Of a DNA stretch of 64,000 bases, positions 4,985 to 36,944 are shown one piece after another. Below the pieces are notes generated by a model. The model was not told the origin of the DNA. It made no database searches and saw nothing but the letters and a program-made list of their open reading frames with translations. The position numbers and the translations under genes were made by a program. Position 1 is the first letter of the stretch, and each line of letters opens with the position of its first letter. Source of the stretch: Candidatus Omnitrophota bacterium (lineage in GTDB: Bacteria; Omnitrophota; Gorgyraeia; Gygaellales; Profunditerraquicolaceae); assembly GCA_028716965.1 (NCBI GenBank), contig JAQUOV010000004.1, positions 8,377 to 72,376 of the forward strand, read 5' to 3'.

Positions 4985-5662
4985 ATGTCTAAAATAAAAT
5001 CGTGCGCTAAAAAAGATATGCTTGCCAGGGATGATTTTATCCAGGATGATACCTGGAGGATATTCCGTATTATGTCGGAGTTCGTGGACGGCTTTGAGAT
5101 ACTTTCCAGGGTAGGCAAGGCGGTTTCTATCTTCGGCTCGGCGCGCGCCAAACCCGAAAGCAGGCATTATAAGCACGCCGAGGAGATAGCTTATAATATC
5201 GCCAAGGCAGGCTACGCCGTAATTACCGGAAGCGGCCCGGGGCTGATGGAAGCTGCCAACAAAGGCGCCCGCAGGGCAGACGGTTATTCTATCGGATTAA
5301 ATATCCAGCTCCCCTGCGAACAGAAGCCGAACAGGTTCGTAGATACTGTTTTGAGCTTCCGTTATTTTTTCGTACGCAAGGTGATGTTTGTAAAATACGC
5401 CAAGGCTTTTGTAATCTTACCCGGAGGGTACGGCACGCTGGATGAGTTCTTTGAAGCAATTACACTTATTCAGACCAACAGGATAGCCAAATTTCCGGTG
5501 GTCCTTTTTGACAGCAAATATTGGAGGCCGTTATTGGATTGGTTGAAGTCCACGGTTTACAAACACGGCAATATAGACAAAGAGGATATGGAGTTGTTTG
5601 TTTTAGCCGATAACCCCAAAGAGGTGGTGCAGGCTATAAAAAGATTTTATGAAAAAGATTAA
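4985..5662 (+). CDS. LOG family protein (cytokinin riboside 5'-monophosphate phosphoribohydrolase-like / nucleotide nucleosidase)
   Basis: 225 aa. Motifs GSGPGLMEAANKGA and PGGYGTLDEFFE are characteristic of the TIGR00730/LOG family. Confidence 0.75.
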   Translation: MSKIKSCAKKDMLARDDFIQDDTWRIFRIMSEFVDGFEILSRVGKAVSIFGSARAKPESRHYKHAEEIAYNIAKAGYAVITGSGPGLMEAANKGARRADGYSIGLNIQLPCEQKPNRFVDTVLSFRYFFVRKVMFVKYAKAFVILPGGYGTLDEFFEAITLIQTNRIAKFPVVLFDSKYWRPLLDWLKSTVYKHGNIDKEDMELFVLADNPKEVVQAIKRFYEKD

Positions 5663-6428
5663 AGTTTGTATTTTAAGAAGCGCAGGCACTAATTGCGACA
5701 AGGAGACCGCAGCGGCATTTAAGATTGCCGGGGCAGAGCCGGAACTATTGCATATCAACAGCCTGGTAAGCCGCAAGCGCGTGCTTGGCGATTTCCATAT
5801 ACTGGCCCTTCCCGGAGGTTTTAGCTATGGCGACGATATTGCCTCGGGTAAAATATTTGCCAATGAGTTAAGGTTTAAGCTGGCGGATTCCCTGCGCCAG
5901 TTCATCGCCGAAGGAAAACTGATCATCGGTATCTGCAATGGTTTCCAGATTTTAGTTAAAAGCGGGCTTCTCCCGGGGTCTAAAGACCTAAAACAAGATA
6001 CCAGCCTGATCATCAATGACTCCGGTAAATTTGAAGCACGCTGGGTGTATCTTAAGCCGGGTGGAAAATGTGTATGGACAAAGGGCTTAAAGAAGGCCAT
6101 CTATCTTCCCGTAGCCCACGGGGAAGGAAAATTTGTCACGCAGGATAGATCTGTATTGAACCGGCTTAAAAAGAACAGGCAGGTTGTTTTTCAATATTGC
6201 GACGCAGAAGGCAGATTGTGCGCTTACCCGGGCAACCCGAACGGCTCAATAGAAAATATTGCCGGCATCACTGACCAGACAGGCAGGATCCTGGGTTTGA
6301 TGCCGCATCCGGAAAGGCATATCTACGCAGCAGCTCATCCGCGTAAATGGGGATTAAGATTTAACCGTGAAGGGGACGGCTTACAAATATTCAGAAATGG
6401 AGTGGAATATGTTAAAGAAAATCTGTGA
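5649..6428 (+). CDS. purQ: Phosphoribosylformylglycinamidine synthase, glutamine amidotransferase subunit
   Basis: 259 aa. Class I GATase with nucleophile in GICNGFQIL; N-terminus MKKIKVCILRSAGTNCD is typical of PurQ. Confidence 0.9.
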   Translation: MKKIKVCILRSAGTNCDKETAAAFKIAGAEPELLHINSLVSRKRVLGDFHILALPGGFSYGDDIASGKIFANELRFKLADSLRQFIAEGKLIIGICNGFQILVKSGLLPGSKDLKQDTSLIINDSGKFEARWVYLKPGGKCVWTKGLKKAIYLPVAHGEGKFVTQDRSVLNRLKKNRQVVFQYCDAEGRLCAYPGNPNGSIENIAGITDQTGRILGLMPHPERHIYAAAHPRKWGLRFNREGDGLQIFRNGVEYVKENL

Positions 6429-7884
6429 ATACAAGCGATGCCTGCCTGCCGACAGGCAGGAGCCAAAAGAGTATTGCGGGTTATTCGGGATAACTAATAA
6501 CAGGCAGGCAGTCTGGCTTACCTACCTTGGGCTTTTTGCCCAGCAGCACCGCGGCCAGGAGGCATGCGGGATCGTGGCGAATAACCAGGGGGTGCTTTCC
6601 ATCCATAAGAATATGGGGTTGGTCAGCGATGTATTCAGCGAGCAGGTGTTAAGCCGCCTGAAAGGGAATATAGCGGTGGGGCATGTGCGGTATTCTACTA
6701 CCGGCTCAAGCGTGTTAAAAAACTCCCAGCCGCTTTTGATTGACTACGCCAACGGCTCTATCTGTATCGCGCATAACGGCAACCTGGTGAATTCGCTTGA
6801 GCTGCGCCAGAAGCTTGAGAAAAGCGGTTCCATCTTTCAGACTACAACCGATTCGGAACTGGTCATCCATCTTATGGCGCGCAGCAATAAGCGCAGCCTG
6901 GAGGACAGCCTGGTTTATGCTTTAAAAAGGGTCAAAGGCGCCTATTCACTGGTATTGATGAACAGCAATTATTTAATCGGCGTAAGGGACCCGCACGGTT
7001 TCCGGCCGCTGGTTTTAGGGAAACTCGGCGCTTCATACTGCCTTGCTTCGGAGACTTGCGCTTTTGATTTGATCGGCGCTAAATTCGTGCGCGAGATTGA
7101 GCCCGGGGAGATAGTGCTGATTAATAACCAGGGTGATATAAAATCAATCAAGCCGAAAGAGCTGCTTGCCTGCCACCATTCGTTTTGTATCTTTGAGCAT
7201 GTTTATTTTTCCCGGCCGGATTCCAATGTCTTCGGCGAGACCGTGCATACTGTCCGGCGCAAGCTGGGCGCGCGATTAGCCAAAGAATACCCGGTAGAAG
7301 CTGATTTTGTGGTCCCGGTGCCGGACTCCGGGTTTTCAGCGGCCCTGGGCTATTCGCAGGAATCAGGTATCCCGTTGGAGATGGGGATCATCCGCAACCA
7401 TTATGTGGGCAGGACATTTATCCAGCCGGCGCAGGATTCCCGGGATATGGGGGTGCGGGTAAAGTTTAATATTTTAAAGGATATCCTTAAGGGCAAGCGC
7501 ATTATCGTAGTTGATGATTCTATTGTGCGCGGCACAACTTCAAAGATCCGCGTGCGCAACCTGCGTAAGGCCGGGGTAAAAGAGGTACATTTGAGGATCT
7601 CCTGCCCGGCGCACCGCTTTCCGTGTTTTTACGGGATTGATTTCCACCGCGCAAGCGAACTGATCGCAAATAAATACGATAGCCTGGAGAAGATCAGTAA
7701 ATATCTTGAGGTAGACAGCCTGGGATATTTAAGCTTAGAAGGGATGTTGGGCTGCCTTAAGCATCCTAAGGAAAGCTATTGCGCTTCATGCTGGACAGGA
7801 AAATACCCGTTAAGGCCGGAGAAGAGGCATAGTAAGTTTTCTTTAGAGAGAAGCTGCTGCGGACAGGGGGAGTTACAAGTATAA
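6409..7884 (+). CDS. purF: Amidophosphoribosyltransferase (propeptide-containing, Fe-S type)
   Basis: Ntn-hydrolase catalytic Cys in CGLFGI after a short propeptide. PRTase motif IIVVDDSIVRGTT. C-terminal Cys cluster (CASCWTGKYP) as in B. subtilis-type PurF. Start chosen at ATG 6409; the ORF is open from 6367. Confidence 0.88.
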   Translation: MLKKICEYKRCLPADRQEPKEYCGLFGITNNRQAVWLTYLGLFAQQHRGQEACGIVANNQGVLSIHKNMGLVSDVFSEQVLSRLKGNIAVGHVRYSTTGSSVLKNSQPLLIDYANGSICIAHNGNLVNSLELRQKLEKSGSIFQTTTDSELVIHLMARSNKRSLEDSLVYALKRVKGAYSLVLMNSNYLIGVRDPHGFRPLVLGKLGASYCLASETCAFDLIGAKFVREIEPGEIVLINNQGDIKSIKPKELLACHHSFCIFEHVYFSRPDSNVFGETVHTVRRKLGARLAKEYPVEADFVVPVPDSGFSAALGYSQESGIPLEMGIIRNHYVGRTFIQPAQDSRDMGVRVKFNILKDILKGKRIIVVDDSIVRGTTSKIRVRNLRKAGVKEVHLRISCPAHRFPCFYGIDFHRASELIANKYDSLEKISKYLEVDSLGYLSLEGMLGCLKHPKESYCASCWTGKYPLRPEKRHSKFSLERSCCGQGELQV

Positions 7885-7898
7885 AATAAGTATTTAGT

Positions 7899-7971
7899 GT
7901 TTTACGGGTCCTGTCGAGCCTTGTTTTCGCCGCACATTGCGGCTCAAATCAAGTCTCGCCACCCGTAAAAC
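7899..7971 (+). repeat. Family B 73-nt nested-hairpin repeat, copy 1 (purF-purM intercistronic)
   Basis: Outer stem GTTTTACGGGT/ACCCGTAAAAC, second stem CGAGCCTTG/CAAGTCTCG, inner hairpin GCCGCAcatTGCGGC. Second copy at 19476-19548. Confidence 0.7.
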
Positions 7972-9023: not shown

Positions 9024-9491
9024 ATGGACGCTTATATAGAATTATTAAAAGAGTCTTATTATAAAGAGCGTAAAAAGCTTGAGGGGATGTGGATTTTTAA
9101 TCAAGAAGGGAAGCTAAGATTTCTGGCGGCAAGAAAAGAGATGCTGGATAAGGCTAAAGAGAACCTTTCCATATCACAAATGTTAGGCCGGCAGGATATT
9201 ACAGAAGATATTAAGGAAAATTTACTGCGCGACCGCAATAATGCAGAAAAAATAGAGGAATATTTGAAGAAGGCTATTGAGGGCGAGTTTTCGAATATTG
9301 AAAATGATGAAAAGGCGGAATTGAGGAACTCACAATATTCTTGCGATGATTACGCGGAATATGTATTGCAGATAGAGAAGGTAAATGCCCTGGAGGCGGA
9401 ATTAGAAAATAACCGTATGTTCTCTGATGCGGTTTATGAAGAGCAGAAAGCAATTGCCGAAGGTAAGAATAAAACAGGAGGTGGGGAATGA
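9024..9491 (+). CDS. Hypothetical coiled-coil protein
   Basis: 155 aa, charged and K/E-rich, no recognisable motif. Start overlaps the next gene, suggesting co-translation with the SPFH protein. Confidence 0.5.
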   Translation: MDAYIELLKESYYKERKKLEGMWIFNQEGKLRFLAARKEMLDKAKENLSISQMLGRQDITEDIKENLLRDRNNAEKIEEYLKKAIEGEFSNIENDEKAELRNSQYSCDDYAEYVLQIEKVNALEAELENNRMFSDAVYEEQKAIAEGKNKTGGGE

Positions 9492-10357
9492 ATATTTTAG
9501 GTATGGTAATTACGGCAGCAGTAGTAATATTCTTTATGGGTATCAGGATCGTGCGGCCTACACATAGAGGCTTAGTTGAAAGATTTGGCAAGTATAATCG
9601 CTTTGCTAACCCGGGATTTAACTGGGTATTTCCTATAATTGAAAATCTCTACCAGATTAATATCACTGAACAAATGGTGGATGCCGAGCCGCAGGAGATT
9701 ATCACTAATGACAACCTTAATGCCAAGGTTGACGCGCAGGTTTATTTTAAGGTAAAGGCAGATGAGGCGGATGTCAAGAACTGCCAGTACAGCGTCAATA
9801 ATTACCAGTGGCAGATCGTAAATTTAGCGCGCACCACATTAAGGAATATAATCGGTACTTTGACTTTAAAATCCGCCAACAGCGAAAGAGGCAAGATCAA
9901 CGCAGAGTTGCATAAAACGCTTTGCGAAGAGACTGCCAGCTGGGGCTTGGAGATTGTAAGGACCGAGTTAAAAGAGATTGACCCGCCCAAAGATGTGCAG
10001 GAGACGATGAATAAGGTTGTAAAAGCCGAGAATGAGAAGATCGCGGCAATTGATTATGCTACGGCAACTGAAACTGCTGCTGACGGTCAAAAAAGAGCAG
10101 AGATTAAAAAGGCCGAAGGTATCAAGCAGGCGCGCATATTAGAAGCTGAAGGCGAAGCCGCAGCGATAAAGTTAGTAAATGAAGCCGCAGAGCATTATTT
10201 TGTAGGTAATGCGCAGGTATTAAGAAAACTGGAAGCGGTTGAGAAGTCATTAGTAAATAACGCCAAGATTGTTATTCCGGCAAATACGGAGTTGGTGAAT
10301 GTGATTGGCGAAATGGCCGGCTTTTTACCGATTAAAAACAAAGAAGAAAAGAAATAG
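9488..10357 (+). CDS. SPFH/band-7 (stomatin/prohibitin-like) membrane protein
   Basis: 289 aa. N-terminal TM, then IVRPTHRGLVERFGKY...PGFNWVFPIIE typical of the SPFH domain, followed by an A/E-rich coiled-coil tail. Confidence 0.8.
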   Translation: MNILGMVITAAVVIFFMGIRIVRPTHRGLVERFGKYNRFANPGFNWVFPIIENLYQINITEQMVDAEPQEIITNDNLNAKVDAQVYFKVKADEADVKNCQYSVNNYQWQIVNLARTTLRNIIGTLTLKSANSERGKINAELHKTLCEETASWGLEIVRTELKEIDPPKDVQETMNKVVKAENEKIAAIDYATATETAADGQKRAEIKKAEGIKQARILEAEGEAAAIKLVNEAAEHYFVGNAQVLRKLEAVEKSLVNNAKIVIPANTELVNVIGEMAGFLPIKNKEEKK

Positions 10358-10393
10358 CTTTTGACATTTTACCTTTGGGTTGTTGTTTGCGTG

Positions 10394-10613
10394 CATTAAT
10401 GAATCTGTCGTTTTGCTCGCTCAGGTCGATTTTTTAACGCCAATGCTCTTTCGCATTTCGGTGGCTGCGGAACTTGCGGTATTTGCTCTTGCAAATACCG
10501 CTCAAGCATCCTCGCCATCCCCGTTTTGTCGCTTCGCTCCACGGGGATACCCGAAATGCTCAAGCTCCATTGGCTAAAATCGACATTCACTCGCAATAAC
10601 GCCAGATTCATTT
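10394..10613 (+). repeat. Family C MITE-like element, copy 1 (about 220 bp, about 45-bp imperfect TIRs)
   Basis: Head AATGAATCTGTCGTTTTGCTCGCTCAGGTCGATTTTTTAACGCCAATG is the inverted complement of tail CATTGGCTAAAATCGACATTCACTCGCAATAACGCCAGATTCATTT. Central hairpin TCCCCGT...ACGGGGA. About 85% identical to the copy at 36728-36944. Confidence 0.7.
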
Positions 10614-10624
10614 AGGCGTATTTA

Positions 10625-10705
10625 AGAGATAAGTTGTATTGTGCACATTTGCCGAAAATTTTCTAATGCGCGCTCCGCCAAAACCGCAAAACTTGATGAT
10701 TTTTA
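10625..10705 (+). repeat. Partial family D element (right-half fragment)
   Basis: GCACATTTGCCGAAAATTTTCTAATGCGC matches the D motif GCACACTTTTGCCGAAAATCTTCTAATTGTGCC seen in copies at about 29860-30085 and 54165-54395. Confidence 0.5.
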
Positions 10706-10750
10706 AAATCGCGCCTATAGATGTAATAAGAACAAATAAGAGGATTTATT

Positions 10751-11479
10751 ATGGATGATGGTCGTAAGTTTTTGAGATATATTGTTCCTGCTTTTGTTTA
10801 TTTTGTTGAAGTAATTTTATTTCTATCTTTATTTTTAGTTTTTAATCCTTCAATATGCACATTTAACTTATCAAACGATCTAATCAACGAAAATAATATT
10901 TTAGAAATCATTATTATGGGTTTTATTGTAAGTGGAGGATTAGGTGCTTTTTTTTGTCAAATATACCATGTAATCTATTCATTTCACGTAGTTGACCTTC
11001 GAAATTCCATAATAGATGCTATAGAAAAAGGATGTTTAAAAGTAATGGAGAGGGGCAAAGCTTTAGAAGCTAAGAACATAAAGAATTGTAACAAAAGAAT
11101 TTTCTTAATGATTGATACTGTTTTGTGGAGTCAGCGTAGTGAACTTAACAATAAAATTAAAGGAGCAAAAGATAGGACTCAAACATACCATGATCATTTG
11201 CATGGTATAGGTGGAGTAATTGTTGCTACTTTTTTTGCTTTTGTAAGTTGGTTCTTCATAATCGGATACATAGCAGAAGAAATGTGTCTATTCAATCTTG
11301 CGTATTGGTTTATTATTTGTTCCTGGGTTGTATTATTTATTATCTTCTTTCTTGGATACTTTAGAATAAGGGAACAACTAGAATTTCATCGCTATTCTAT
11401 TTTAATAGATGTTTTGAAAGATGATTTCTTTTGGAATAATAAGAAACCTGCGGAGGTAGATATTCCTTGGGTTAAGTAA
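10751..11479 (+). CDS. Hypothetical 4-TM membrane protein, compositionally foreign (about 30% GC)
   Basis: 242 aa, two hydrophobic helices at each end, central soluble region with HDHLHGIGG. Strongly AT-rich codon usage unlike all flanking genes. Lies directly after the C/D repeat pile-up. Confidence 0.55.
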   Translation: MDDGRKFLRYIVPAFVYFVEVILFLSLFLVFNPSICTFNLSNDLINENNILEIIIMGFIVSGGLGAFFCQIYHVIYSFHVVDLRNSIIDAIEKGCLKVMERGKALEAKNIKNCNKRIFLMIDTVLWSQRSELNNKIKGAKDRTQTYHDHLHGIGGVIVATFFAFVSWFFIIGYIAEEMCLFNLAYWFIICSWVVLFIIFFLGYFRIREQLEFHRYSILIDVLKDDFFWNNKKPAEVDIPWVK

Positions 11480-11722
11480 ATGAAAATAGAGGAGTAAATG
11501 GAGACAGAATGAGTAAATGGTTTCAAGATTATTTTAGCGGGTGAGTTGGTTTGATTTTGAGCAGGGCGTGGAGGCAAGGAGCGGGCACGGTTCCGTCATT
11601 TTAGTGTCAGAGAGCGACGCCAGCCGACTCGAGCGAAGTTTTGACACGCCGGGGCAAAACGAGCGTCCCTGCGAAAAACAAACCAAGCCAGGGCCCGCGC
11701 AAGGCAGGATTGAGGAGGGAAA

Positions 11723-12178
11723 ATGAGAAAAAGATTTATTTATCTTGGGTTAAGCGTTTTATGTTCTTTAGGTTTTCTGTTAAGTTATGCTGAAGCAGCG
11801 GACCAGGTGTCGGTAGAATTCAAGCTGGTTTGTGCAGGCTCAAGCCAGTCTGATTGCAGGAAAGCGGAAACGCCGAATAGATTTGAAGAACTTTATGTCA
11901 GCAAAACCCCATTTCTTTCAACAAAAGATATTGCGTCTGCAAAAATAACAGAGCAGGAGCCTAATATAGTGATTGATTTAAGATTTAATAAGGAAGCAAC
12001 GCAGAAATTTAACGAGATTACCTCTAAGAATGCGGGGAGAAGAATAGCCGTATTTCTTGATGGAAGCCTGCTTACTACTTCTAAGATTTATGATCCTGTT
12101 ACAACAGGAAAAATTACAATAACCACCAGCCTTACAAAAGAAAAAGCAAAGGCTTTAGTAGATTCTATTAACAAATAG
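11723..12178 (+). CDS. Hypothetical secreted protein (signal peptide)
   Basis: 151 aa. N-terminal signal peptide MRKRFIYLGLSVLCSLGFLLSYAEA; no confident family assignment. Confidence 0.5.
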   Translation: MRKRFIYLGLSVLCSLGFLLSYAEAADQVSVEFKLVCAGSSQSDCRKAETPNRFEELYVSKTPFLSTKDIASAKITEQEPNIVIDLRFNKEATQKFNEITSKNAGRRIAVFLDGSLLTTSKIYDPVTTGKITITTSLTKEKAKALVDSINK

Positions 12179-12193
12179 TTATGTTAAAATAAG

Positions 12194-12883
12194 ATGTTGA
12201 AGAAAATCTTGTGTGTTATAACATTAGTTTTATTTCCTTTGATGGCCTGGGCCGCGGAGTCTTGGGAGAAAAAAGGGGATTATTATTTTCTTGCCAAGAC
12301 CAGGGACAACTTTGCCTTGGAAGGCGCAGGCCCGAATATATTTGCCAGCAAATATTTGGCATACGGCGGAGTGGATTTCCTGGTGCGCGGGGAAAGCAGT
12401 TGGCAGGATTACGGAAGGCTTGATCTTGAAGGCAATAATATGTTCTCCCTGCCGATAAGGCCGGGGATGAAGGTGGAGGAGGTGCATTTTTTAGCAGGCG
12501 GCAATTACAGCAACAGCTATGAGCATGATGCGTCAATGCGCTTGTTCGGGGATAAATATTTTTACGCTACCCTTAGCGTTATCTTTGCATATGAAGACGG
12601 CACACATAATAACCTTTCCGTGCCGGTTTTCTGGGATTGGTTTGATATTGGAATCGGCGAATGGTCGAAGAACGGGGCAACCATTAAATCCTTAGGTGAA
12701 AACCCGGTGCGTCAAAAATGCAGCATGTTCCATATTATCTTTGTTAACCCCCGGCCGATGGAGCCGGTAAAGGATATCCTGGTTGCGGATAGCTGGATAG
12801 ATGACCGGCCTTTTTCAGATGTCTTTGCAGTAACAATTAAATCTTCTGATACACTGGATGCGGCAGCAAAAGGAGAGAAATAA
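12194..12883 (+). CDS. Hypothetical secreted protein (signal peptide)
   Basis: 229 aa. Signal peptide MLKKILCVITLVLFPLMAWAAES. Aromatic-rich mature region, no recognisable motif. Confidence 0.5.
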   Translation: MLKKILCVITLVLFPLMAWAAESWEKKGDYYFLAKTRDNFALEGAGPNIFASKYLAYGGVDFLVRGESSWQDYGRLDLEGNNMFSLPIRPGMKVEEVHFLAGGNYSNSYEHDASMRLFGDKYFYATLSVIFAYEDGTHNNLSVPVFWDWFDIGIGEWSKNGATIKSLGENPVRQKCSMFHIIFVNPRPMEPVKDILVADSWIDDRPFSDVFAVTIKSSDTLDAAAKGEK

Positions 12884-14172
12884 TGCGCATATTAGTGGTT
12901 GGTTCAGGCGGAAGAGAACATGCGTTGGCCTGGAAGATCGCTCAATCGCAAGCCGTGGATAAGATCTTTTGCGCTCCCGGTAACGGCGGTATTACGCACC
13001 TGGCAGAGTGCGTTGATATAAAGTCTGATGATATCTTTGGTTTGCTGGATTTTGCCAGAAAAGAAAAGATCGGCCTGACCGTGGTCGGTCCGGAGATACC
13101 TTTGGCTTTAGGTATCGTGGATGAGTTTATAAAAGCAGGGCTTAAGATATTCGGGCCGAATAAGAAAGCTGCTGCTCTTGAGGCAAGCAAGATTTTTAGC
13201 AAGCAGTTGATGGCAAAATACAATGTGCCTACCGCCGAGTTTAAGGTTTTTGATGACCCGGAAGAAGCGAAAAAATATATTGAGAAGAAGGGCGCGCCCT
13301 GCGTAGTCAAGGCTGACGGCCTGGCCGCCGGAAAAGGCGTGGTTGTGGCCAAAACCGTTAAGGAGGCAAAGGATGCGGTAAAAGCTATGATGCAGGACAA
13401 GGTCTTCGGCGATGCCGGCAAGAAAATAATCATTGAGGAGTGCCTTACCGGGCAGGAGGCCTCAATCATTGTGATCACGGATTCAAAACAGGTATTGGCA
13501 TTGGCTTCAGCACAGGACCACAAAAGTATTTTTGACAATGACCAGGGAGCAAACACCGGGGGCATGGGCGCTTATTCCCCCGCTTCCATTGTTACTCCTG
13601 GCATCCTGGTTGAGGTTATGGAAAAGATAATTTACCGCACTATTGACGGCTTGGCCAAAGAAGGCATAGATTATCGGGGAGTTTTGTATGCCGGAATAAT
13701 GCTGACTAAAGAAGGGCCGAAGACGCTTGAGTTTAATGTGCGTTTTGGCGATCCGGAGACAGAAGCAATACTGCCCAGGTTAAAATCGGATTTAGTGGAG
13801 GTAATGCTGGCGGCAACCGACGGAGAGTTGACCAAGGTAAAGAATTTATACTGGGATTCCCGCGCCTGTGTATGCGTGGTTTGCGCATCCGGAGGCTATC
13901 CGGGAAGTTATGCAAAAGATAAAGAGATCAAGGGGTTAAAGGAAGCGGAGAAATTAAAGGATATCGTGGTTTTTCACGCCGGGACTAAAAAAATGGGTGA
14001 TAAAATATTGACCAGCGGAGGCAGGGTCTTGGGGGTAACCGGATTAGGCACAACAATTGAGGATGCGATAGATAAAACATATAAAGCAGTGAGCAAGATC
14101 AGTTTTGAAGGCATGCACTATCGTACTGACATCGGGCATAAGGCAATAGGGCAGAAGGTAAGCCGCATATGA
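12883..14172 (+). CDS. purD: Phosphoribosylamine--glycine ligase
   Basis: 429 aa. N-terminus MRILVVGSGGREHALAWKIAQS is diagnostic of GAR synthetase; ATP-grasp fold. Confidence 0.9.
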   Translation: MRILVVGSGGREHALAWKIAQSQAVDKIFCAPGNGGITHLAECVDIKSDDIFGLLDFARKEKIGLTVVGPEIPLALGIVDEFIKAGLKIFGPNKKAAALEASKIFSKQLMAKYNVPTAEFKVFDDPEEAKKYIEKKGAPCVVKADGLAAGKGVVVAKTVKEAKDAVKAMMQDKVFGDAGKKIIIEECLTGQEASIIVITDSKQVLALASAQDHKSIFDNDQGANTGGMGAYSPASIVTPGILVEVMEKIIYRTIDGLAKEGIDYRGVLYAGIMLTKEGPKTLEFNVRFGDPETEAILPRLKSDLVEVMLAATDGELTKVKNLYWDSRACVCVVCASGGYPGSYAKDKEIKGLKEAEKLKDIVVFHAGTKKMGDKILTSGGRVLGVTGLGTTIEDAIDKTYKAVSKISFEGMHYRTDIGHKAIGQKVSRI

Positions 14173-14885
14173 GTTTAGAAAAGGAAAACCAGGCAGGCAA
14201 TTGGCCGGTTTTAGGAACAAAAGACATAGCCGGGGCTTATAAATTTTATGTTGAGAAGCTGGATTTTGTTCCCTGCGGGCAGTATGATAATGTTGCCGGC
14301 TTGGAGCAGGTGATTGTTAAACTGGATGGGTTTTTCCTTGTTCTTCGTAAATCGCAAGCAAGCGGCCCGCTTATCCAGGCAGAGCAAAAAATAGAAGGCA
14401 GGCAGGATCAGGACAGGGAGTTAGCGTTGTATATACCTGTGAGAGGTGTATTTGATTATTACAACGCGATAAAGAATAAAGGCGTAGATACGGTCACGGA
14501 AATCATAAAAGGGCCGGATGATTCGGATTTAAACTTTTTCAATCCGGATGAAGACGGTTTCTACCTCAAGGATGAAGACGGTAACCTTCTGGTTTTTTGG
14601 ACATATTATAGCGATCATTACAATCCCAGGTTTTGGGCTTGGGTTTGGGAACTTAAATTAACACCTGAAAGGATTATGCAGTTTAAGAAGCCGGCTAAGT
14701 TATCCGGAAAAGACAAAATCATTAATTGGGGATGTTTTATCGTTTTTTTCGCGGCTCTTATGGTTATCTTGGCTATTATAACAACTCATTACGCGGTATT
14801 TATAGCCGCGTCATTGGGTTTAGCGATTATAGGGGCTGTTATCAAATCTATTAATTGTTTTTGCCGTAAGCGTTATTCAAAATAG
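14169..14885 (+). CDS. Hypothetical protein, possible VOC/glyoxalase-like N-domain with C-terminal TM helices
   Basis: 238 aa. N-terminal region resembles the bleomycin-resistance/glyoxalase fold (weak). Two hydrophobic helices at the C-terminus. 4-nt overlap with purD. Confidence 0.45.
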   Translation: MSLEKENQAGNWPVLGTKDIAGAYKFYVEKLDFVPCGQYDNVAGLEQVIVKLDGFFLVLRKSQASGPLIQAEQKIEGRQDQDRELALYIPVRGVFDYYNAIKNKGVDTVTEIIKGPDDSDLNFFNPDEDGFYLKDEDGNLLVFWTYYSDHYNPRFWAWVWELKLTPERIMQFKKPAKLSGKDKIINWGCFIVFFAALMVILAIITTHYAVFIAASLGLAIIGAVIKSINCFCRKRYSK

Positions 14886-16926: not shown

Positions 16927-18170
16927 AACATTTAAAACAGATTGACCCGGAGATTTACGCAGCGATTAAGAAAGAGATGCAGCGCCAGGATGAGAACCTT
17001 GAGTTGATCGCCTCGGAGAACTTTGCTTCTTTGGGAGTGTTGGAGGCCCAGGGCTCTGTGTTGACCAATAAATATGCCGAGGGATATCCCGGCAGGCGCT
17101 GGTATGGCGGGTGTGAATATGTAGATACCGCAGAGAGCCTTGCTATTGAACGGGCCAAAGCAATATTCGGCGCAGAGCACGCCAATGTCCAGCCGCATTC
17201 AGGTTCGCAGGCGAATATGGCGGTGTATTTTGCGGCGATAAAACCGGGAGATACGGTCCTGGCTATGGATTTAGCTGCCGGAGGCCACCTCACCCACGGC
17301 CACCCGCATAATTTCTCCGGGATGTTTTATAAGATCGTCGGTTACGGCGTGGACAGGAAAAGCGAAACCCTGGATTATGATGCCATCCTTGAGCTTGCCA
17401 AAACACATAAGCCGAAGATGATACTGGCAGGCGCCTCGGCGTATCCAAGGACAATTGATTTTAAGAAGTTCCGCCAGATCGCTGACAGCGTCGGGGCGTA
17501 TCTATTCGTGGATATGGCGCATATCGCAGGGCTGGTCGCTGCCGGGGTTCATCCTTCTCCCGTACCTTACGCGGAGTTTGTTACCTCTACTACGCATAAG
17601 ACCTTGCGCGGCCCGCGCGGCGGGTTTATCCTTTGCAGGAAAGAGTTTGCCAAGAAAATAGACAGCCAGATCTTCCCCGGGATACAGGGGGGGCCGTTGA
17701 TGCATGTGGTTGCCGCCAAAGCCGTGGCATTTGCCGAGGCAATGACGCCGGAGTTTAAGCAATACCAGGCCCAGCTGGCTGAAAATGCCAGGGAGTTAGC
17801 AAAGGCTTTGGAGAAAAAAGGCTTTCGCATCGTATCCGGAGGCACGGATACGCATTTAATGCTCGTAGATCTGAATGCCAAAAATATTACCGGCTCCGAT
17901 GCTTCAAGGATTTTAGGGCAGGTAAATATTACGGTAAACAAGAACCTTATACCTTTTGATCAGAAGTCTCCGCTTGTAACAAGCGGTATCCGCCTGGGCA
18001 CGGCGGCAGTAAGCACGCGCAAGATGAAAGAGGCGCAGATGCAGAAGATCGCCGGTTTAATCAACGATGCGCTGGAAAACCAGGCCGATATGAATAAATT
18101 AACTGAAATCAAAAAGGAAACGATCGCTTTAGCCAGAAAGTTTCCGCTATATCCGGAGCTATTGAAATAA
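16923..18170 (+). CDS. glyA: Serine hydroxymethyltransferase
   Basis: 415 aa. PLP-site [19 protein letters not shown] and [10 protein letters not shown] motifs. Confidence 0.92.
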
Positions 18171-18251
18171 TATGAACCCCTCGCCTTCTGTAAATTTAAC
18201 TATTGAAGCCATGGGGTTTAATGAGCTGACTAAGGAAGAAGGTGCGGGATG
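18171..18251 (+). repeat. Family A junction element, copy A1 (short derivative of the GIY-YIG cassette)
   Basis: Left arm TATGAACCCCTCGCCTTCTGTAAATTTAAC, right arm GAAGGTGCGGGATGA. Contains in-frame micro-[29 protein letters not shown] whose TGA overlaps ATG 18249 of the downstream gene. Confidence 0.75.
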
Positions 18252-18710
18252 AAAAAGAGCAGAACTATACATAAGCGCCCTACGTGGGATGAATATTTCC
18301 TGGAGATGGCAGGCTTGGTTGCCAAAAGGTCAACCTGCCTGCGCCGCTCTGTTGGTGCGGTATTGGTAAGAGAAAAAAGAATTTTGGCTACCGGTTATAA
18401 CGGCGCTCCCAGCGGTTTGAAGCACTGTGTTGAAATCGGCTGTATACGCCAGCAGTTAAAGATACCTTCCGGAGAACGCCATGAATTATGCCGCGCCTTA
18501 CATGCAGAGCAGAACGCGCTTATCCAGGCCTGCCTGCACGGCATAAGCGTAAAAGGCGCAACTTTATATGCCACTAATCAGCCGTGCGTTATCTGCGCCA
18601 AGATGCTCATTAACGCCGGGATAAGGGAGATCGTAATTGCCGAAGGCTACCCGGACAAAATGGCGATGAGCTTCTTAAGGCAGGCAAAGATAAGAATAAG
18701 GAAAATATGA
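18249..18710 (+). CDS. Deoxycytidylate (dCMP) deaminase, ComEB-like
   Basis: 153 aa. CDA-fold zinc motifs HAEQNA and PCVICAKML; N-terminus KRPTWDEYF typical of dCMP deaminases. Stop TGA lies inside the left arm of element A2. Confidence 0.8.
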
Positions 18711-19011
18711 ACCCCGCACCTTCTTTAAATTCAATAATGTACCATGCGTATCTTCTTAAAAGTAAAAAGAATGATACTTTTTATATTGGATATACAAATA
18801 ATATTGAAAGAAGGTTAAAAGATCATAGCTCCGGGATAGTTGAATATGCAGGGAAATATGTGCCTTGGGAAATAGTGTATTATGAAAGCTCTATTTCCTT
18901 GGTTGATGCTAATCAAAGGGAGAGATCTCTTAAATCTTTTGGGAGGGCATATTCAGGTTTAAAACTTAGAATTAAAAATAGCTTGAATAAGAAAGAAGGT
19001 GCGGGGTGAAG
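18704..19011 (+). mobile_element. Family A full-length element: TIR-flanked YhbQ-like GIY-YIG cassette (putative autonomous copy)
   Basis: Left end ATATGAACCCCGCACCTTCTTTAAATTCAA and right end TTGAATAAGAAAGAAGGTGCGGGGTGAAG are inverted complements (16-bp perfect core ACCCCGCACCTTCTTT). The ends enclose a 100-codon GIY-YIG ORF. Confidence 0.75.
18707..19009 (+). CDS. GIY-YIG nuclease superfamily protein (UPF0213/YhbQ-like)
   Basis: 100 aa. [32 protein letters not shown] matches the GIY-(x10)-YIG plus conserved R/H catalytic region of YhbQ-like proteins. Conserved EGAG near the C-terminus as in E. coli YhbQ. ATG overlaps upstream TGA (ATGA); its TGA overlaps the nrdR GTG (GTGA). Confidence 0.8.
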
Positions 19012-19475: not shown

Positions 19476-19548
19476 GGTTAGCGGGTCCTGGCGAGGCTTG
19501 TTTTCGCCGCGCACCGCGACTCAAATCAAGCCTCGCCACCCGCTAACT
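19476..19548 (+). repeat. Family B 73-nt nested-hairpin repeat, copy 2 (after nrdR)
   Basis: Outer stem GGTTAGCGGGT/ACCCGCTAAC, second stem GCGAGGCTTG/CAAGCCTCGC, inner CGCGcacCGCG. Same 73-nt length and architecture as 7899-7971, with compensatory substitutions. Confidence 0.7.
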
Positions 19549-26921: not shown

Positions 26922-27851
26922 GTGAGGATAAAGAATACGGAGATTAAGGTTGTGCTGGGGGATATTACGGAGATAAGGGCGGATGCGATTGTGAATGCCG
27001 CTAACAACAAGCTGGTTATGGGCGGGGGAGTAGCCGGGGTAATTAAGAAAAAAGGCGGCAAGGTGATTGAAGAGGAGGCGCTTAAGAAGGGGCCGATAGG
27101 TATCGGAGAGGCGGTTGAGACTTCCGCCGGAGAGCTGGCGGCAAAATATGTGATTCATGCGGCGACCATGGGAATGGATTTTAAAACAGATGAAGTGATG
27201 ATCCGTAATGCCTGCAGGAGTTCCTTAAAGCTGGCCGAAGAATTGAAGATTGGTTCTGTTGTTTTTCCGGCTTTGGGGTGCGGCACAGGAGGCTTTCCGC
27301 TTTTGGCTTGCGCAAAGATTATGGCGCAGGAAGTGCTAAGACACCTGCGGGAAGAAAATACCTGTTTAGATGAGATTGTTTTCTGCCTTTATACTCAAGA
27401 TGCGTTTACGGTTTTTAATAAAGGCGTTTTAGGGTATTTGGAATACGTGACTACAAAGTTATCCTCGGGCCCGTTTGTGACGGTAGATGCGATTATTGAA
27501 TTGCCCGAGGGGATTGTAATTATCCAGCGCAGCAACCCGCCGTTTGGCTGGGCGCTTCCGGGAGGGTTTGTGGATTACGGCGAAAGCCTGGAGCAGGCGG
27601 TAAAAAGAGAGGCTAAAGAAGAAACAAACCTGGATTTAATTAACATCAAGCAATTCCGCACTTATTCAAATCCCAAGCGCGACCCAAGATTCCACACTAT
27701 CGGTACGGTATTCATTGCTAAAGCAAAAGGTAGGCCTAAGGCAGGGGATGACGCGGCAGGTTTAAAAATTATCAAACCTGCCGAGATAGAGAAGCTTGAT
27801 TTTGCTTTTGACCACAAAGACATCCTTCATGATTACCTCAAAACAAAATAG
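26922..27851 (+). CDS. Macro domain (ADP-ribose/O-acetyl-ADP-ribose binding) fused to Nudix hydrolase
   Basis: 309 aa, GTG start after GGAGGA. N-terminal macro motifs [21 protein letters not shown] and HAATMG. C-terminal Nudix box [29 protein letters not shown]. Confidence 0.8.
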
Positions 27852-27923
27852 GGACGTTTCTTGACCCAATCGGAGAAGTGTCCCCATAGGGGACACTTCT
27901 CCCTTTAGCTTGAGAAACGTCCC
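27851..27923. terminator. Family E 73-nt palindromic hairpin between convergent genes (likely bidirectional terminator), copy 1
   Basis: GGGACGTTTCTTGACCCAATCGGAGAAGTGTCCCC pairs with GGGGACACTTCTCCCTTTAGCTTGAGAAACGTCCC. Located between the Macro-Nudix stop (27851) and the helicase stop (27929). Confidence 0.6.
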
Positions 27924-27928
27924 TAATA

Positions 27929-29859: not shown

Positions 29860-30085
29860 TATTCGCTTTCCGTCTTTCGCTTCGGCACGAAGATTTTCGC
29901 TGTGTGCTTCGGTTTACGTCTCGTTTCGGCAGCGCAGGTTCCTTACGCAATAAGGCATTGCCTGCACTCGCCGTAAAGCCTTGCACACTTTTGCCGAAAA
30001 TCTTCTCATTGTGCCTCCAGCAAAAGACGGAAATCTCATGGCGAGAAACAAGCCAAGGCAGCTCCGATAGCTAAAATCATTGATT
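29860..30085 (+). repeat. Family D MITE-like long-hairpin element, copy 1
   Basis: TTCCGTCTTTCGCTTCGGCACGAAGATTTTCGCTGTGTGC ... GCACACTTTTGCCGAAAATCTTCTCATTGTGCC ... CAAAAGACGGAA; arms are imperfect inverted complements. Homologous to 54165-54395. Confidence 0.65.
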
Positions 30086-32934: not shown

Positions 32935-33025
32935 CGGATGGTCCTTAAGCCAAGGGAAAAGTGTCCTTTGTAGAGGAAGTTATCCACTACGGGGACACTT
33001 CTCCGATTGGCTCAAGAAACGTCCC
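32935..33025 (+). repeat. Family E hairpin, degenerate copy 2 (after spoVG)
   Basis: Right half GGGGACACTTCTCCGATTGGCTCAAGAAACGTCCC (32991-33025) is the inverted complement of the E1 left arm. Left partner CCAAGGGAAAAGTGTCC is degenerate. Confidence 0.5.
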
Positions 33026-33035
33026 TGCTTAAAAG

Positions 33036-34731: not shown

Positions 34732-36732
34732 ATGTCTAAAAATCTGGTTATCGTAGAGTCGCCTACCAAGGCTAAAACCATAAGCAAGATCCTGGGCCAG
34801 GATTTTAGCGTGGTTTCCTCCATGGGGCATATTATTGACCTGCCGCAGAAAGAATTGGGCGTAGATGTAGATAATAATTTCAAGCCGGAATATGTGATTA
34901 TCCCGGCCAGAAAGAAATTGTTGACCCAGCTTAGAAAAGAGGCCAAGTCAAAAGAGAAGATATATGTGGCAACCGACCCTGACCGGGAGGGTGAGGCAAT
35001 CGGCTGGCAGATAAAAGAAAAGGTCTTTAAGGGCAAGGATGTCCTGCGGGTAAGTTTTCATGAGATTACCCCGCATGCGGTAGGGGAGGCCTTTAAATCC
35101 GCACGTGAGTTTGACGCCAATATGATTGAGGCCCAGGTCGGCCGCAGGGTGCTGGACCGTATCGTCGGATATTTCTTGAGCCCTTTACTTTGGAAAAAAC
35201 TTGCCCGCGGTTTAAGCGCAGGGCGCGTGCAATCCGTAGCCTTAAGGCTGATCGTGGAACGGGAACGCCAGATCCAGGCCTTTACCGCCAGCGAATATTG
35301 GGAGATTATCGCGGAGTTATTTAAGCCTAAGGTCTTCGGGGAGAGTAGTTTTTGCGCTAAACTTGAAAAGATAGACGGTGAAAAAGCGCAGATTAAGACC
35401 CAGGATGAAGCGCAAGCGATCGTAGAGCAGCTTAAGGAAAAAGAGTTTAAGGTCCTGGAGGTTAAGCAAACAGAAAAGAAACGCTATGCCCCGGCTCCAT
35501 TTATCACCAGCACTATGCAGCAGGAGGCCTTTAATAAGCTTAAGTTTAATGCCTCCAAAACCATGATGGTGGCGCAGCAGCTTTACGAGGGTATTGATAT
35601 CGGCGGGGATAACCCCCTGGGCTTGATTACTTATATGCGTACGGATTCTCCGAATACCGCTCCGGAGGCAGTTGCCGAAGTGCGTGAGCATATCGGCAGG
35701 GTCTTCGGCAAGGATTTTGTCCCGGAGAAACCGAATTTTTTCAAGGCTAAAAAATCAGCGCAGCAGGCGCATGAAGCGATCCGGCCAAGCTATGTTTCGC
35801 GTTCTCCGGAAAGCATGAAAGATTTCTTAAGCCACGACCAGTTTCGTTTATATGAGCTCATTTATAACCGTTTCCTGGCCAGCCAGATGAAACCCGCTGA
35901 ATTCCTGGCTACTTCGGTAGATATCTGCGCGGATAAATATTTGTTTGCGGCTAACGGAAGCCATTTGCTTTTTGAGGGGTTCCTGGCTGCTTACAACAGG
36001 ACCGAAGAGGAGGAAAAGGATGACGAGGAGGAGAAAGAAAAAAACAAGAATGTGGTCCCTCCTTTAGAACAAGGAGAGGTTCTCGGTCTGACTAAGCTTG
36101 TGCCCTCCCAACATTTTACCAAGCCGCCTCCGAGGTTTTCGGACAGCTCTTTAGTCAAGGCCCTGGAAGAGGACGGGATCGGCCGGCCTTCAACCTACGC
36201 GCCGATTATTTACACGCTCATTCTGCGCGATTATGTGCGCAGGATTAAAGGCTATCTTAACCCCACGGAGCTTGGTTTCAAGGTCAGCGATATGCTGGTA
36301 GAATATTTCCCGAAGATTATAGATGTCAAGTTTACCGCGCTTATGGAGGATGAGCTGGATGAGATTGAAGAAGGCAGGCTTAAGCGCGTGGAGGTATTAA
36401 AAGAATTCTACGCCCCTTTTAAAGAGAGCCTGGATTTTGCCCAGGCGAATATAAAGAAGGAGGTTATTACTACCGATCAGATTTGCGATAAATGCGGCAA
36501 GCCTTTTATCATAAAGTGGGGCCGGCGCGGTAAATTCCTGAGTTGTTCGGGTTTTCCCTCCTGCAAGAATTCCAGGTCTATTACTTCCGGTGTCAAATGC
36601 CCGGAAGAAAATTGCGGCGGGGAATTGATCGAGCGCAGGTCAAAGCGCGGTTTTTTCTATGGTTGTTCAAACTTTCCGAAATGCACCTTTACCTCGCGTA
36701 CGTTGCCGCAGGATAAGGAAGATACGCAATGA
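34732..36732 (+). CDS. topA: DNA topoisomerase I
   Basis: 666 aa. TOPRIM N-terminus MSKNLVIVESPTKAKTISKILG, active-site Tyr region, C-terminal Cys4 zinc ribbons (CDKCGKP, CPEENCGG). Confidence 0.92.
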   Translation: MSKNLVIVESPTKAKTISKILGQDFSVVSSMGHIIDLPQKELGVDVDNNFKPEYVIIPARKKLLTQLRKEAKSKEKIYVATDPDREGEAIGWQIKEKVFKGKDVLRVSFHEITPHAVGEAFKSAREFDANMIEAQVGRRVLDRIVGYFLSPLLWKKLARGLSAGRVQSVALRLIVERERQIQAFTASEYWEIIAELFKPKVFGESSFCAKLEKIDGEKAQIKTQDEAQAIVEQLKEKEFKVLEVKQTEKKRYAPAPFITSTMQQEAFNKLKFNASKTMMVAQQLYEGIDIGGDNPLGLITYMRTDSPNTAPEAVAEVREHIGRVFGKDFVPEKPNFFKAKKSAQQAHEAIRPSYVSRSPESMKDFLSHDQFRLYELIYNRFLASQMKPAEFLATSVDICADKYLFAANGSHLLFEGFLAAYNRTEEEEKDDEEEKEKNKNVVPPLEQGEVLGLTKLVPSQHFTKPPPRFSDSSLVKALEEDGIGRPSTYAPIIYTLILRDYVRRIKGYLNPTELGFKVSDMLVEYFPKIIDVKFTALMEDELDEIEEGRLKRVEVLKEFYAPFKESLDFAQANIKKEVITTDQICDKCGKPFIIKWGRRGKFLSCSGFPSCKNSRSITSGVKCPEENCGGELIERRSKRGFFYGCSNFPKCTFTSRTLPQDKEDTQ

Positions 36733-36944
36733 ACCTTGTAAATTTCTCGCTCAAGCCGATTTTTTAACGCCAATGTTCTTTCATATTCCGGCGGTTGCAG
36801 AACTTACGGTATTTGCTCTGGCAAATACCACTCAAACAGCTTCGCCGTCCCCGTTTTGTCGCTTCGCTCCACGGGGATTCCCGGAATACTGAAAGCTCCA
36901 TTGGCTAAAATCGACATTCGCTCGAAATTTACCAGGTTCATTTT
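36728..36944 (+). repeat. Family C MITE-like element, copy 2 (inserted at the topA stop codon)
   Basis: Head AATGAACCTTGTAAATTTCTCGCTCAAGCCGATTTTTTAACGCCAATG and tail CATTGGCTAAAATCGACATTCGCTCGAAATTTACCAGGTTCATTT are inverted complements. The topA TGA lies inside the terminal AATGAACC. Confidence 0.7.

Follow-up and report, generated by a model that had tools for sequence, protein, structure and literature searches.

The closest described systems to the locus analyzed here are integron cassettes, with attC sites of 57-141 nt, dispersed palindromic repeats such as Correia elements, ERIC and BIMEs, and defence hotspots set between core genes. Among the last, cDHS1 and cDHS2 of Pseudomonas aeruginosa are flanked by core genes, and homologous recombination has been proposed as the route by which their content is transferred (PMC10250203). 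The PDC systems of PADLOC are defence candidates that have not been experimentally validated (10.1101/2024.01.29.577857). Literature searches on Omnitrophota repeats or hotspots, and on PDC-S33, returned nothing specific. Here, a 64,000-nt stretch of DNA from a Candidatus Omnitrophota bacterium (the window) was analyzed, and one of its intergenic spacers is probably a miniature hotspot for accessory, possibly defence, genes that are exchanged by homologous recombination via conserved flanks and shared palindromes.

This spacer (the slot, positions 10358-11722) lies between an SPFH gene and ORF151 within a purF-purM-...-purD-purE cluster, with purF, purM, SPFH, purD and purE as its neighbours. 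The flanking genes and the cassette between them are arranged as follows.

9488 to 10357, + strand: SPFH/Band_7 gene, the conserved left flank (Pfam Band_7, 1.3e-39)
10698 to 10750, + strand: cassette leader with ribosome-binding site AAGAGG, common only to the ORF242-bearing relatives L006 and L007
10751 to 11479, + strand: ORF242, a 4-TM cassette gene of 242 aa and 729 nt (from composition, family and predicted topology)
11480 to 11528, + strand: cassette 3' tail with two copies of GAGTAAATGG, at 11492-11501 and 11511-11520
11723 to 12178, + strand: ORF151, a predicted secreted SecDF_P1_head-like protein, the right flank (Pfam, 8.5e-18)

Eight syntenic loci with core genes 77-99% identical at the protein level were found in metagenomes, and a scan of genome contigs with ORF151 alone yielded no relatives among the GTDB representatives so searched. 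The SPFH gene is 91-99% identical in protein and 82-87% in DNA to its counterparts in L013-L019, and ORF151 orthologs stand immediately 3' of the slot in nine relatives, the window allele having diverged furthest (58-68% aa) and shifted most towards AT among them. Between these flanks the spacer measures 358-1448 nt and its ORFs are unrelated between loci. Its content differs in nearly every relative, and nine sampled slot versions represent eight distinct gene contents; the small insertion hotspot proposed in an earlier reading of the sequence alone is supported, and all four elements on which that reading drew lie at the positions it gave or a few bases away. Near-empty L014 has the arrangement expected of genomes lacking the insert, with SPFH followed after 358 nt by the ORF151 ortholog, without repeats and without the AT-rich gene, and five other relatives carry unrelated, mostly AT-rich genes in the spacer. 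Each allele consists of between one and three short genes, every one of which runs in the direction of the cluster. Among the alleles are two that encode TM proteins of 236 and 194 aa, one with a Gly-rich protein, and one that combines a 157-aa protein with a lipoprotein. The main cassette genes mostly encode membrane or secreted proteins and mostly have 28-34% GC and a GC3 of 19-29%, compared with a GC3 of 0.5-0.6 in core genes. The L019 allele encodes a RelA/SpoT protein (Pfam RelA_SpoT, 2.4e-19) matching PDC-S33 of PADLOC (E = 1.2e-118), which is a defence candidate rather than a validated system and is matched by one of the nine slot alleles; the other cassette proteins gave no PADLOC or Pfam match.

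Slot content has been swapped wholesale between otherwise near-identical genomes. L017 and L019 are 94.1% identical over 5262 nt of left flank and 95.2% over the right flank, with 100% identical ORF151 proteins, and the flanks of L007 and L018 are 97.4% and 93.1% identical; in both pairs the slot contents are unrelated, and the same core flanks thereby enclose different content in close relatives. These pairs bear directly on whether ORF242 could be a native, vertically inherited gene with a low GC content stemming from hydrophobic amino-acid composition or selection for weak expression, a reading that is highly improbable and already largely refuted by synteny. The ORF242 homologs of L006 and L007 (75% and 57% identical) are equally low in GC, that of L007 stands directly 5' of the ORF151 ortholog, and both speak for a native gene. 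The sequence-only reading had named conservation of the AT-rich gene at this site as the finding that would count against an island, and it was encountered in these two contigs only. The two homologs do not rescue a native origin because the L007/L018 and L017/L019 pairs combine near-identical flanks with different cassettes; moreover, ORF242 is missing from six of eight informative relatives, which have unrelated genes in its place, and a homolog in Omnitrophota genome GCA_028716625.1 lies in another genomic context.

The same question was addressed through base composition. ORF242 had been called an outlier in GC content and codon usage, and with 29.5% GC and 23.0% GC3, against a window mean of 46.3% GC, it is the lowest-GC 729-nt segment of the 64 kb (mean 0.463, sd 0.030; ~5.6 sd) and has the lowest synonymous-codon score of 63 ORFs (z = -4.08; next -2.0). 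Amino-acid composition combined with host codon usage lowers the GC expected of a native gene from 47% to 39.6%, but this accounts for less than half of the deficit, and ~10 of the 17 missing points are left to codon choice, equal to 6 sd of the host spread. Other spacers of the same cluster hold accessory genes with host-like GC and without palindromes, and general regional plasticity alone therefore does not explain the AT-richness of the slot. In the GC-rich gap that follows the gene (11480-11722, 51.9% GC), the direct repeat reported earlier is GAGTAAATGG, which has no other occurrence in the whole window (chance expectation 0.16). Window positions 11466-11527 (62 nt) correspond to 447 nt in L006 (812-1258) coding for an extra TM segment of ~130 aa, and the tail at 11480-11528 may possibly be the remnant start of a lost second gene, tentatively suggested by its resemblance on inspection to a ribosome-binding site and ATG.

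Classical marks of a genomic island were lacking at the slot: a tRNA/tmRNA scan gave no hit in the whole 64 kb, repeat comparison of the window detected no direct repeats bracketing the insert, and neither an adjoining integrase nor att-like direct repeats were found at the slot. A sigma-70 promoter scan of the slot returned no more sites than shuffles did, the terminator-like matches in the slot fall inside palindromes, and Rfam gave nothing credible for the whole window at the gathering threshold or for 10300-11800 at E <= 5. What brackets the cassette is instead a set of palindromic elements, which also occur elsewhere in the window.

10396 to 10614, + strand: C element, an imperfect, MITE-like palindrome of 219 nt with terminal inverted repeat AATGAATCTG / CCAGATTCATT
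10639 to 10697, + strand: 3' arm of a D element, a truncated palindrome (nhmmer, model positions 116-174 of 179)
11529 to 11713, + strand: R element, a GC-rich palindrome of 185 nt 5' of ORF151, the right slot boundary, with ends TTAGCGGGT...ACCCGC
29862 to 30045, + strand: full D copy (repeat comparison, nhmmer)
36728 to 36943, + strand: second C copy (paralog) in an ordinary intergenic spacer
54184 to 54368, + strand: full D copy (repeat comparison, nhmmer)

The two repeat-family members said to lie back to back within 10394-10705 are thus the C element and the D arm, and the gap after the gene, correctly described as GC-rich, is now recognized as a conserved palindromic R element bounding the slot. 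The two C copies of the window are 85.6% identical over 202 nt (10396-10614 against 36743-36943), and the C element folds as DNA at -59.4 kcal/mol (z = -9.15; 0/200 shuffles as good); further copies occur in L016, at the orthologous site and 92% identical, and in L018, with an internal deletion. D is present three times in the window and as full copies in L007 (187-360; fold z = -4.94) and L017 (6601-6774), and the D arm of the slot is 95-97% identical to L006, L007 and L017. The R element, which bounds the slot on the right in most relatives, was found in nine loci overall and in both orientations: at the orthologous position in L013, L015, L016, L017 (as a variant), L018 and L020, as its 5' part only in L006 (at the contig end) and L019, and inverted to the left of the cassette in L013 and L019. 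Its single-sequence fold is not significant (z = -1.56), and pairing in its outer stem is kept via compensatory changes in 8 of 33 pairs. No second copy of the 11480-11722 gap was detected within the window at E <= 0.1, and its repeat nature is visible only in relatives. A 61-aa ORF inside R (11541-11726) was rejected as coding, its frame being lost in L013 and L016; ORFs inside the palindromic elements shift frame between loci.

These junctions also speak to the possibility that a short AT-rich contig was misjoined at repeats into the MAG contig by assembly or binning, which is the least credible of the explanations weighed. Independent Logan assemblies of the gene do end inside the D arm and R (contigs of 919 and 926 nt), but each of these contigs has exactly the D arm and the start of R at its sides, matching the window. 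The order D arm-homolog-R was assembled independently in L006 and the order D-homolog-ORF151 in L007, and the outer junctions recur as well (SPFH-C in L016, R-ORF151 in L013 and L018).

Together, the C, D, R and P families are GC-rich, non-coding and multi-copy, are nested or truncated in one another, and recur in shuffled combinations around different genes. They resemble MITEs in having terminal inverted repeats or hairpins (C and D folds, R stem compensation) and in being dispersed with insertion polymorphism at orthologous sites; the purF|purM spacer, for example, is occupied by one palindrome in the window and by another in L016, and L017-L019 lack any there. No clear target-site duplication was seen around the two C copies, and no transposase was found in the examined sequence. 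Palindromes at orthologous sites are 87-97% identical in DNA as compared to 69-87% for flanking coding genes, and R is 87-93% identical next to an ORF151 that is only 69-74% identical. Conservation exceeding that of genes is not expected of simple, junk-like MITEs, which hints at selection on the elements or a dedicated role for them.

One such role would be that of attC-analogous sites for a site- or structure-specific recombinase, making the slot a one- or two-cassette array. The cassettes are compact (an ORF with a leader of ~45 nt and a tail of 25-50 nt) and co-oriented at all loci, a long imperfect palindrome lies 3' of each (L017 reads ORF-palindrome-ORF-palindrome), six different cassettes meet the right junction at the same motif, ...GAT(T/A)ATTTTAGCGGG, and both the conservation of the palindromes beyond coding DNA and the compensatory changes in the R stem would fit. 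Even so, an integron-like system is unlikely here. Inspection of the junctions aligned from seven loci and of the element ends revealed no GTTRRRY/RYYYAAC core sites, the elements (175-219 nt) are longer than attC, and no integrase was identified among the genes around the slot. Furthermore, the same families occupy cassette-free spacers (36728, 29862, 54184 and purF|purM), the exchange between L017 and L019 spans the whole spacer including the palindromes and breaks off where the core genes end, and the mosaic identity within ORF242 described below favours homologous exchange. A bolder proposal is that C, D, R and P are recognition structures of a dedicated Omnitrophota cassette exchange working without attC or IntI and moving single AT-rich genes into the spacers of housekeeping operons, and that the ORF242 family is at the same time a new, structurally unprecedented anti-phage membrane effector. 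Dedicated exchange would explain why the palindromes are more conserved than genes, have compensatory stems and always sit at cassette junctions; the two parts taken jointly are, however, improbable.

Homologous recombination through conserved flanks and shared palindromes is the preferred reading, and it is one that we infer from the pattern of common and non-common blocks, no event having been directly observed. Across the D arm, the leader and the start of ORF242 (its first 65 nt), the window, L006 and L007 show 83-95% identity to one another. Further 3', identity between the window and L007 drops to 45-77%, and identity to L006 falls from ~90% to 60-77% at 11233, a mosaic that points to homologous exchange. 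Homology to L017, which carries another cassette behind the same D element, stops near 10706. Following this reasoning, alleles would be exchanged by homologous recombination anchored in the conserved flanking genes, and the shared palindromes may act as additional anchors, providing portable homology and landing pads for one another. The palindromes themselves would be MITE-like elements, possibly insulating or processing transcripts.

ORF242 had been described as a 4-TM protein of no recognisable family, which holds for curated libraries (no match in Pfam, NCBIfam, PADLOC or PHROG) but not beyond them, as it belongs to a large uncharacterised family with 405 cluster representatives in at least eight phyla plus one archaeal MAG. 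The protein is predicted to have four TM helices with an N-in/C-in topology, and its AlphaFold2 model has a pLDDT of 92.2. No significant relative emerged from a PDB profile search (best E = 0.021), from Foldseek of the model against the PDB (best E = 0.23, TM 0.22) or from a fold search of BFVD (best E = 0.43), and therefore no activity is ascribed to it. Sixty relatives searched against curated profile libraries gave scattered single noise matches only, and neither ORF242 nor 59 relatives matched PADLOC. A Csx27 match (1 of 60 members, E = 0.004) was judged noise, and neither profile nor fold searches lent support to reading the N-terminal RRFLRY motif as a Tat signal, or to a rhomboid-like Ser/His dyad or a PAP2-like motif.

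Family members are solo genes without a fixed gene partner and are spread patchily across their phyla, a distribution at odds with a native gene; at all 13 further loci, from Nitrospirae, Acidobacteria, Proteobacteria, Phycisphaerae, Bacteroidota and other groups, the family gene lies below its own locus in GC. ORF242 is a solo gene that moves horizontally and belongs to a widespread family of 4-TM proteins. Whether it was left behind by a phage or other mobile element, as a moron or superinfection-exclusion gene, was considered as well: it is an AT-rich solo gene, its product is a membrane protein whose external loop is hypervariable, and some family members adjoin a transposase, an IS200-like Y1 transposase or an integrase. 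Such a remnant is nevertheless very unlikely, given that PHROG and BFVD gave no match, two family members had 0 matches in 50,697 phage and 72,556 plasmid records, a pattern scan of IMG/VR found no relative, the slot has no tRNA, integrase or att-like repeats, and the insert is only ~0.8 kb.

At around 8 of 20 family loci, restriction-modification, TA, ABC-ATPase defence-like or transposase genes lie no more than 3-4 genes away, and many members have housekeeping genes as neighbours. R9, S61, D148 and H151 form a conserved polar cluster, which together with two GxG helix motifs suggests a channel or catalytic site. ORF242 most likely acts in conflict at the membrane, for instance in phage defence, exclusion or immunity, with defence assigned only through guilt by location. 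New immune and conflict genes are most productively sought in variable slots between core genes, and this slot belongs to a phylum that lacks a cultured model and has hardly any annotated defence genes. Its versions supply several unannotated small proteins that are directly testable, and the ORF242 family (at least 400 clusters) combines a confident predicted structure and a clear motif set with the absence of any fold relative, making it a tractable target. Shuffled cassettes bounded by palindromes also offer a concrete setting in which to ask whether gene exchange is promoted by long palindromic repeats.

Overall, the slot resembles hotspots flanked by core genes, such as cDHS1 and cDHS2, and integration hotspots generally in its fixed position between conserved core genes and in having content that differs between close relatives, GC below the core genome, no obvious mobile-element machinery and at least one predicted defence allele. 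It differs from them in size (0.36-1.45 kb and 1-3 genes, compared with a median of 26 kb), in sitting inside a biosynthetic gene cluster, in the conserved palindromes, common to several alleles, that bracket its cassettes, and in that most of these cassettes have no known defence homology. Like integron cassettes and CALINs, its units are compact, co-oriented and single-ORF, each followed by an imperfect palindrome, and like Vibrio VCRs these palindromes form related repeat families; unlike in integrons, attC core motifs and IntI were not found at the slot, the elements exceed attC in length and also stand alone in ordinary spacers, and there are one or two units rather than an array. The C, D, R and P elements share with Correia elements, ERIC and BIMEs a non-coding, multi-copy, intergenic nature, a length of 60-220 nt, terminal inverted repeats, nesting or truncation, and presence/absence polymorphism at orthologous sites, but have no Rfam match or sequence relation to any named family and, at orthologous sites, are conserved beyond the neighbouring genes. 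Finally, ORF242 differs from PDC candidates in that it resembles no PADLOC model in sequence or fold; it is solo, patchy, low in GC and found in variable regions, as are these candidates and single-gene membrane defence or abortive-infection effectors, and in a sister genome the slot it occupies is taken by a PDC-S33 homolog.

In a metagenome scan with ORF151 as the query, eight loci of related genomes were recovered, and nearly every genome was found to hold its own content in the spacer (slot) between the SPFH gene and ORF151 of the pur cluster, which supports the insertion hotspot or island proposed in the sequence-only reading. Protein identity of the relatives to the window was 89-93% for purF, 82-85% for purM, 91-99% for SPFH, 77-81% for orf229 and 82-86% for purD. 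The cassette proteins of different loci showed no mutual relationship, and all were carried on the operon strand.

Features of the window slot and its flanks
9488-10357: SPFH gene, left flank
10396-10614: C element, 219-nt imperfect palindrome
10639-10697: D fragment, 3' arm only of a ~180-nt palindrome
10751-11479, forward strand: ORF242, AT-rich cassette gene, 242 aa
11480-11528: tail
11529-11713: R element
11723-12178: ORF151, secreted SecDF_P1_head-like protein, right flank

Slot contents in the window and in related loci (L numbers); C, D, R and P are palindromic element families
Window, 1365 nt: C, D arm, ORF242, R
L006, contig incomplete: D arm, ORF242 homolog (75%) with extra TM segment, 5' part of R
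L007, contig incomplete: 127-aa gene (3' end), D, ORF242 homolog (57%), P
L013, 1225 nt: inverted R-like element, unrelated 236-aa TM protein (28% GC), R
L014, 358 nt: small Cys-rich secreted ORF, no repeats
L016, 1209 nt: C, 215-aa Gly-rich protein, R
L017, 1448 nt: D, 51-aa and 157-aa ORFs (32% GC), P, 62-aa lipoprotein, R variant
L018, 1386 nt: 127-aa secreted protein, internally deleted C, 194-aa TM protein (29% GC), R
L019, 1404 nt: inverted R-like element, 352-aa RelA/SpoT protein (34% GC), first 55 nt of R

The L019 protein (5536-6594) matched Pfam RelA_SpoT (2.4e-19) and, over its full length, PADLOC PDC-S33 (E = 1.2e-118); the PDC entries are untested candidate systems that come from 'guilt by embedding' predictions (10.1101/2024.01.29.577857).

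The ORF151|orf229 and orf229|purD spacers likewise carry strain-specific genes (L013 2165-2482; L015 608-928; L019 7143-7463; L014 1532-2364 and 3068-3865; L016 5261-6214), among whose products are a cupin-like 106-aa protein, lipoproteins, a TPR protein and an ankyrin protein; contrary to the slot, these genes have host-like GC and no palindromes. Both orf155 (9024-9491) and orf238 (14169-14885; glyoxalase-like N-terminus and TM tail) were absent in all relatives, where purM directly adjoins SPFH and purD directly adjoins purE, and they appear to be seamless strain-specific insertions with start/stop overlaps and without repeats. ORF151 evolves much faster than its neighbours (58-68% identity between window and relatives, 71-100% among relatives), and the window copy is AT-shifted, with a GC3 of 0.31, ~8 points under the amino-acid expectation.

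ORF242, identical in sequence to NCBI protein PHT50_02730, has 29.5% GC and 23% GC3, forms the lowest-GC 729-nt window in the 64 kb (~5.6 sd under the mean) and has the lowest synonymous-codon score among 63 ORFs (z = -4.08), in agreement with the deviant GC and codon usage initially ascribed to it. Written in host codons, the same protein would have a GC of 39.6%, and the loss of ~10 further GC points is therefore due to codon choice (6 sd of the host spread). The family gene also fell below the GC of its locus in 13 of 13 further loci. An ORF242 homolog in GCA_028716625.1 lies in a different context, between a methyltransferase on its 5' side and two AT-rich proteins with Rx4H motifs, one with a sub-threshold HEPN match, on its 3' side; GC-rich palindromic sequence again brackets it. 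On the left, L017 and L019 share 94.1% identity across 5262 nt, to 19 nt beyond the SPFH stop, and on the right 95.2% from 12 nt ahead of the ORF151 start; their ORF151 proteins are identical and the intervening 1.4 kb is unrelated. Similarly, L007 and L018 have flanks of 97.4% and 93.1% identity and different cassettes. Together, the two pairs, the GCA_028716625.1 context and the 13 low-GC loci argue for replacement rather than slow divergence.

Exchange between near-identical genomes takes the whole spacer including its palindromes, with breakpoints at the core-gene ends. Within ORF242 (10637-11479 compared) identity is mosaic: the D arm, leader and first 65 gene nt are 83-95% identical among the window, L006 and L007, and identity between window and L006 falls abruptly at 11233, from ~90% to 60-77%, in the TM3-loop-TM4 region, a sequence pattern that points to recombination within the gene or to diversifying selection acting on its external loop. 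Whole-spacer exchange and mosaicism both fit homologous recombination, by which alleles would be swapped via conserved flanks and shared palindromes; recombination through flanks has likewise been proposed for core defence hotspots (PMC10250203). A site-specific, integron-like cassette mechanism is a less probable alternative; four points weigh against it, as neither attC core motifs nor a recombinase near the slot were found, the elements are long, and they are also present away from cassettes. At the slot, neither a tRNA nor an integrase nor direct repeats on its two sides were found. Origin of the arrangement as an assembly artefact is unlikely because each junction was reproduced by independent contigs.

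The gap after ORF242 (11480-11722) was described as GC-rich with a direct repeat, and indeed has 51.9% GC and holds GAGTAAATGG at 11492-11501 and 11511-11520, the only copies in the window. Its tail stands where L006 has 447 nt coding for an additional 130-aa TM segment, and GGAGTAAATGGAGACAGAATGAG in the tail is similar to that segment's RBS and start; tentatively, a second gene may therefore have been lost from the window cassette.

The C element has a DNA fold of -59.4 kcal/mol (z = -9.15) and a paralog at 36728-36943 (85.6% identity); full D copies lie at 29862-30045 and 54184-54368, and that of L007 has a fold z of -4.94. All elements listed by the sequence-only reading are present in the window, including the two repeat-family members ahead of ORF242. 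Around different cassettes, C, D, R and P reappear in shuffled combinations: D lies upstream of ORF242 (window, L006, L007) and of unrelated genes (L017), P downstream of the ORF242 homolog (L007) and the 157-aa gene (L017), R downstream of five different cassettes and C upstream of three. In seven loci the right junction falls at one and the same motif, ...GAT(T/A)ATTTTAGCGGG, and the left side is a pile-up of nested and truncated elements (R-like left arm, then D, in L007 and L017; C, then D arm, in the window; C ends only in L018). The elements are mobile or unstable independently of the cassettes: at the purF|purM spacer the window has a 62-nt palindrome, L016 another one and L017-L019 none; ordinary spacers without a foreign gene also hold the same families. 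Short palindromes with TTAGCGGGT-type ends like R sit in two spacers, one of them purF|purM (window 7903-7968 and 19478-19546; L016 1460-1602). When the window R, C and D elements were compared with L013, L016, L017 and L018, orthologous DNA identity was 87-93% for R, 92% for C and 95-97% for the D arm, versus 69-87% for adjoining genes, and in 8 of 33 pairs of the R outer stem, compensatory substitutions kept the pairing. This unexpected conservation above coding DNA possibly reflects selection on structure, gene conversion among copies or recent lateral spread.

Elsewhere in the window, a 100-aa GIY-YIG gene (18696-19011; 33% GC, Pfam 3.4e-12) is placed exactly between two short inverted arms that recur without the ORF at several other gene junctions (18161-18254, 47701-47794, 55360-55395, 58064-58098); it looks like a small mobile gene with miniature derivatives, inserted between translationally coupled genes. 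A 5.1-kb segment lies between a 77-nt near-perfect hairpin (27849-27925) and a 44-nt inverted copy (32983-33026), 93% identical.

The ORF242 protein was predicted to have four TM helices, N-in/C-in (hydropathy and positive-inside rule), with a cytoplasmic insert of ~77 residues between TM2 and TM3. Its description as lacking a recognisable family holds for curated libraries (no match in Pfam, PADLOC, PHROGs or NCBIfam) but not beyond them. A word-indexed search of 5.8 billion proteins returned four clusters only (ORF242; a 382-aa form of 75% identity, L006; a 57% form, L007 and L008; a 53% form, second Omnitrophota genome), whereas their profile, run against 1.84 billion cluster representatives, matched 405 proteins at E <= 1e-3, of which 117 reached E <= 1e-10; nearly all are of 225-270 aa and align over their full length. 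Among the sources that have a name are Acidobacteria, Phycisphaerae, Nitrospirae, Beta- and other Proteobacteria, Saprospiraceae, Nitrospinota and one Hodarchaeota MAG; the clusters are almost always singletons annotated as hypothetical. Across 210 members M1, F7, R9, P13, G14, S61, G62, G65, W126, D148, H151 and G154 are conserved. The AlphaFold2 model (60 sequences; pLDDT 92.2, pTM 0.87) had no fold relative in the PDB by Foldseek (best E 0.23, TM 0.22) or in BFVD (best E 0.43), and 60 relatives lacked Pfam, PADLOC and PDB sequence matches. The locus brings to light a large uncharacterised membrane-protein family.

A conflict-related membrane role for ORF242 (defence, exclusion or immunity) is a possible reading, short of probable, though none of the alternatives has better support. 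ORF242 is a solo, mobile, AT-rich gene for a membrane-embedded protein with a hypervariable TM3-loop-TM4 part, and its slot also houses the defence-candidate allele of L019. Within a few genes of the family member, about 8 of 20 loci carry restriction-modification, toxin-antitoxin, ABC-ATPase (NsnB/Gabija-like), Uma2/PDC-S03 or transposase genes; the remainder have housekeeping or unknown neighbours. PHROGs, BFVD, phage, plasmid and IMG/VR searches gave no phage or plasmid link. In L001, the second Omnitrophota genome, two AT-rich proteins 3' of the ORF242 homolog (10857-12466) each carry an Rx4H motif, one with a sub-threshold HEPN_MAE_28990 match (E = 0.045), and may be RNase-type defence partners.

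Overall, the analysis supports the hotspot interpretation and makes it more precise. The slot is unusual in its miniature size, its placement within a housekeeping gene cluster and its modular palindromic cassette boundaries, conserved above the neighbouring genes. It belongs to known kinds, combining a core-flanked variable slot with MITE-like palindromes.
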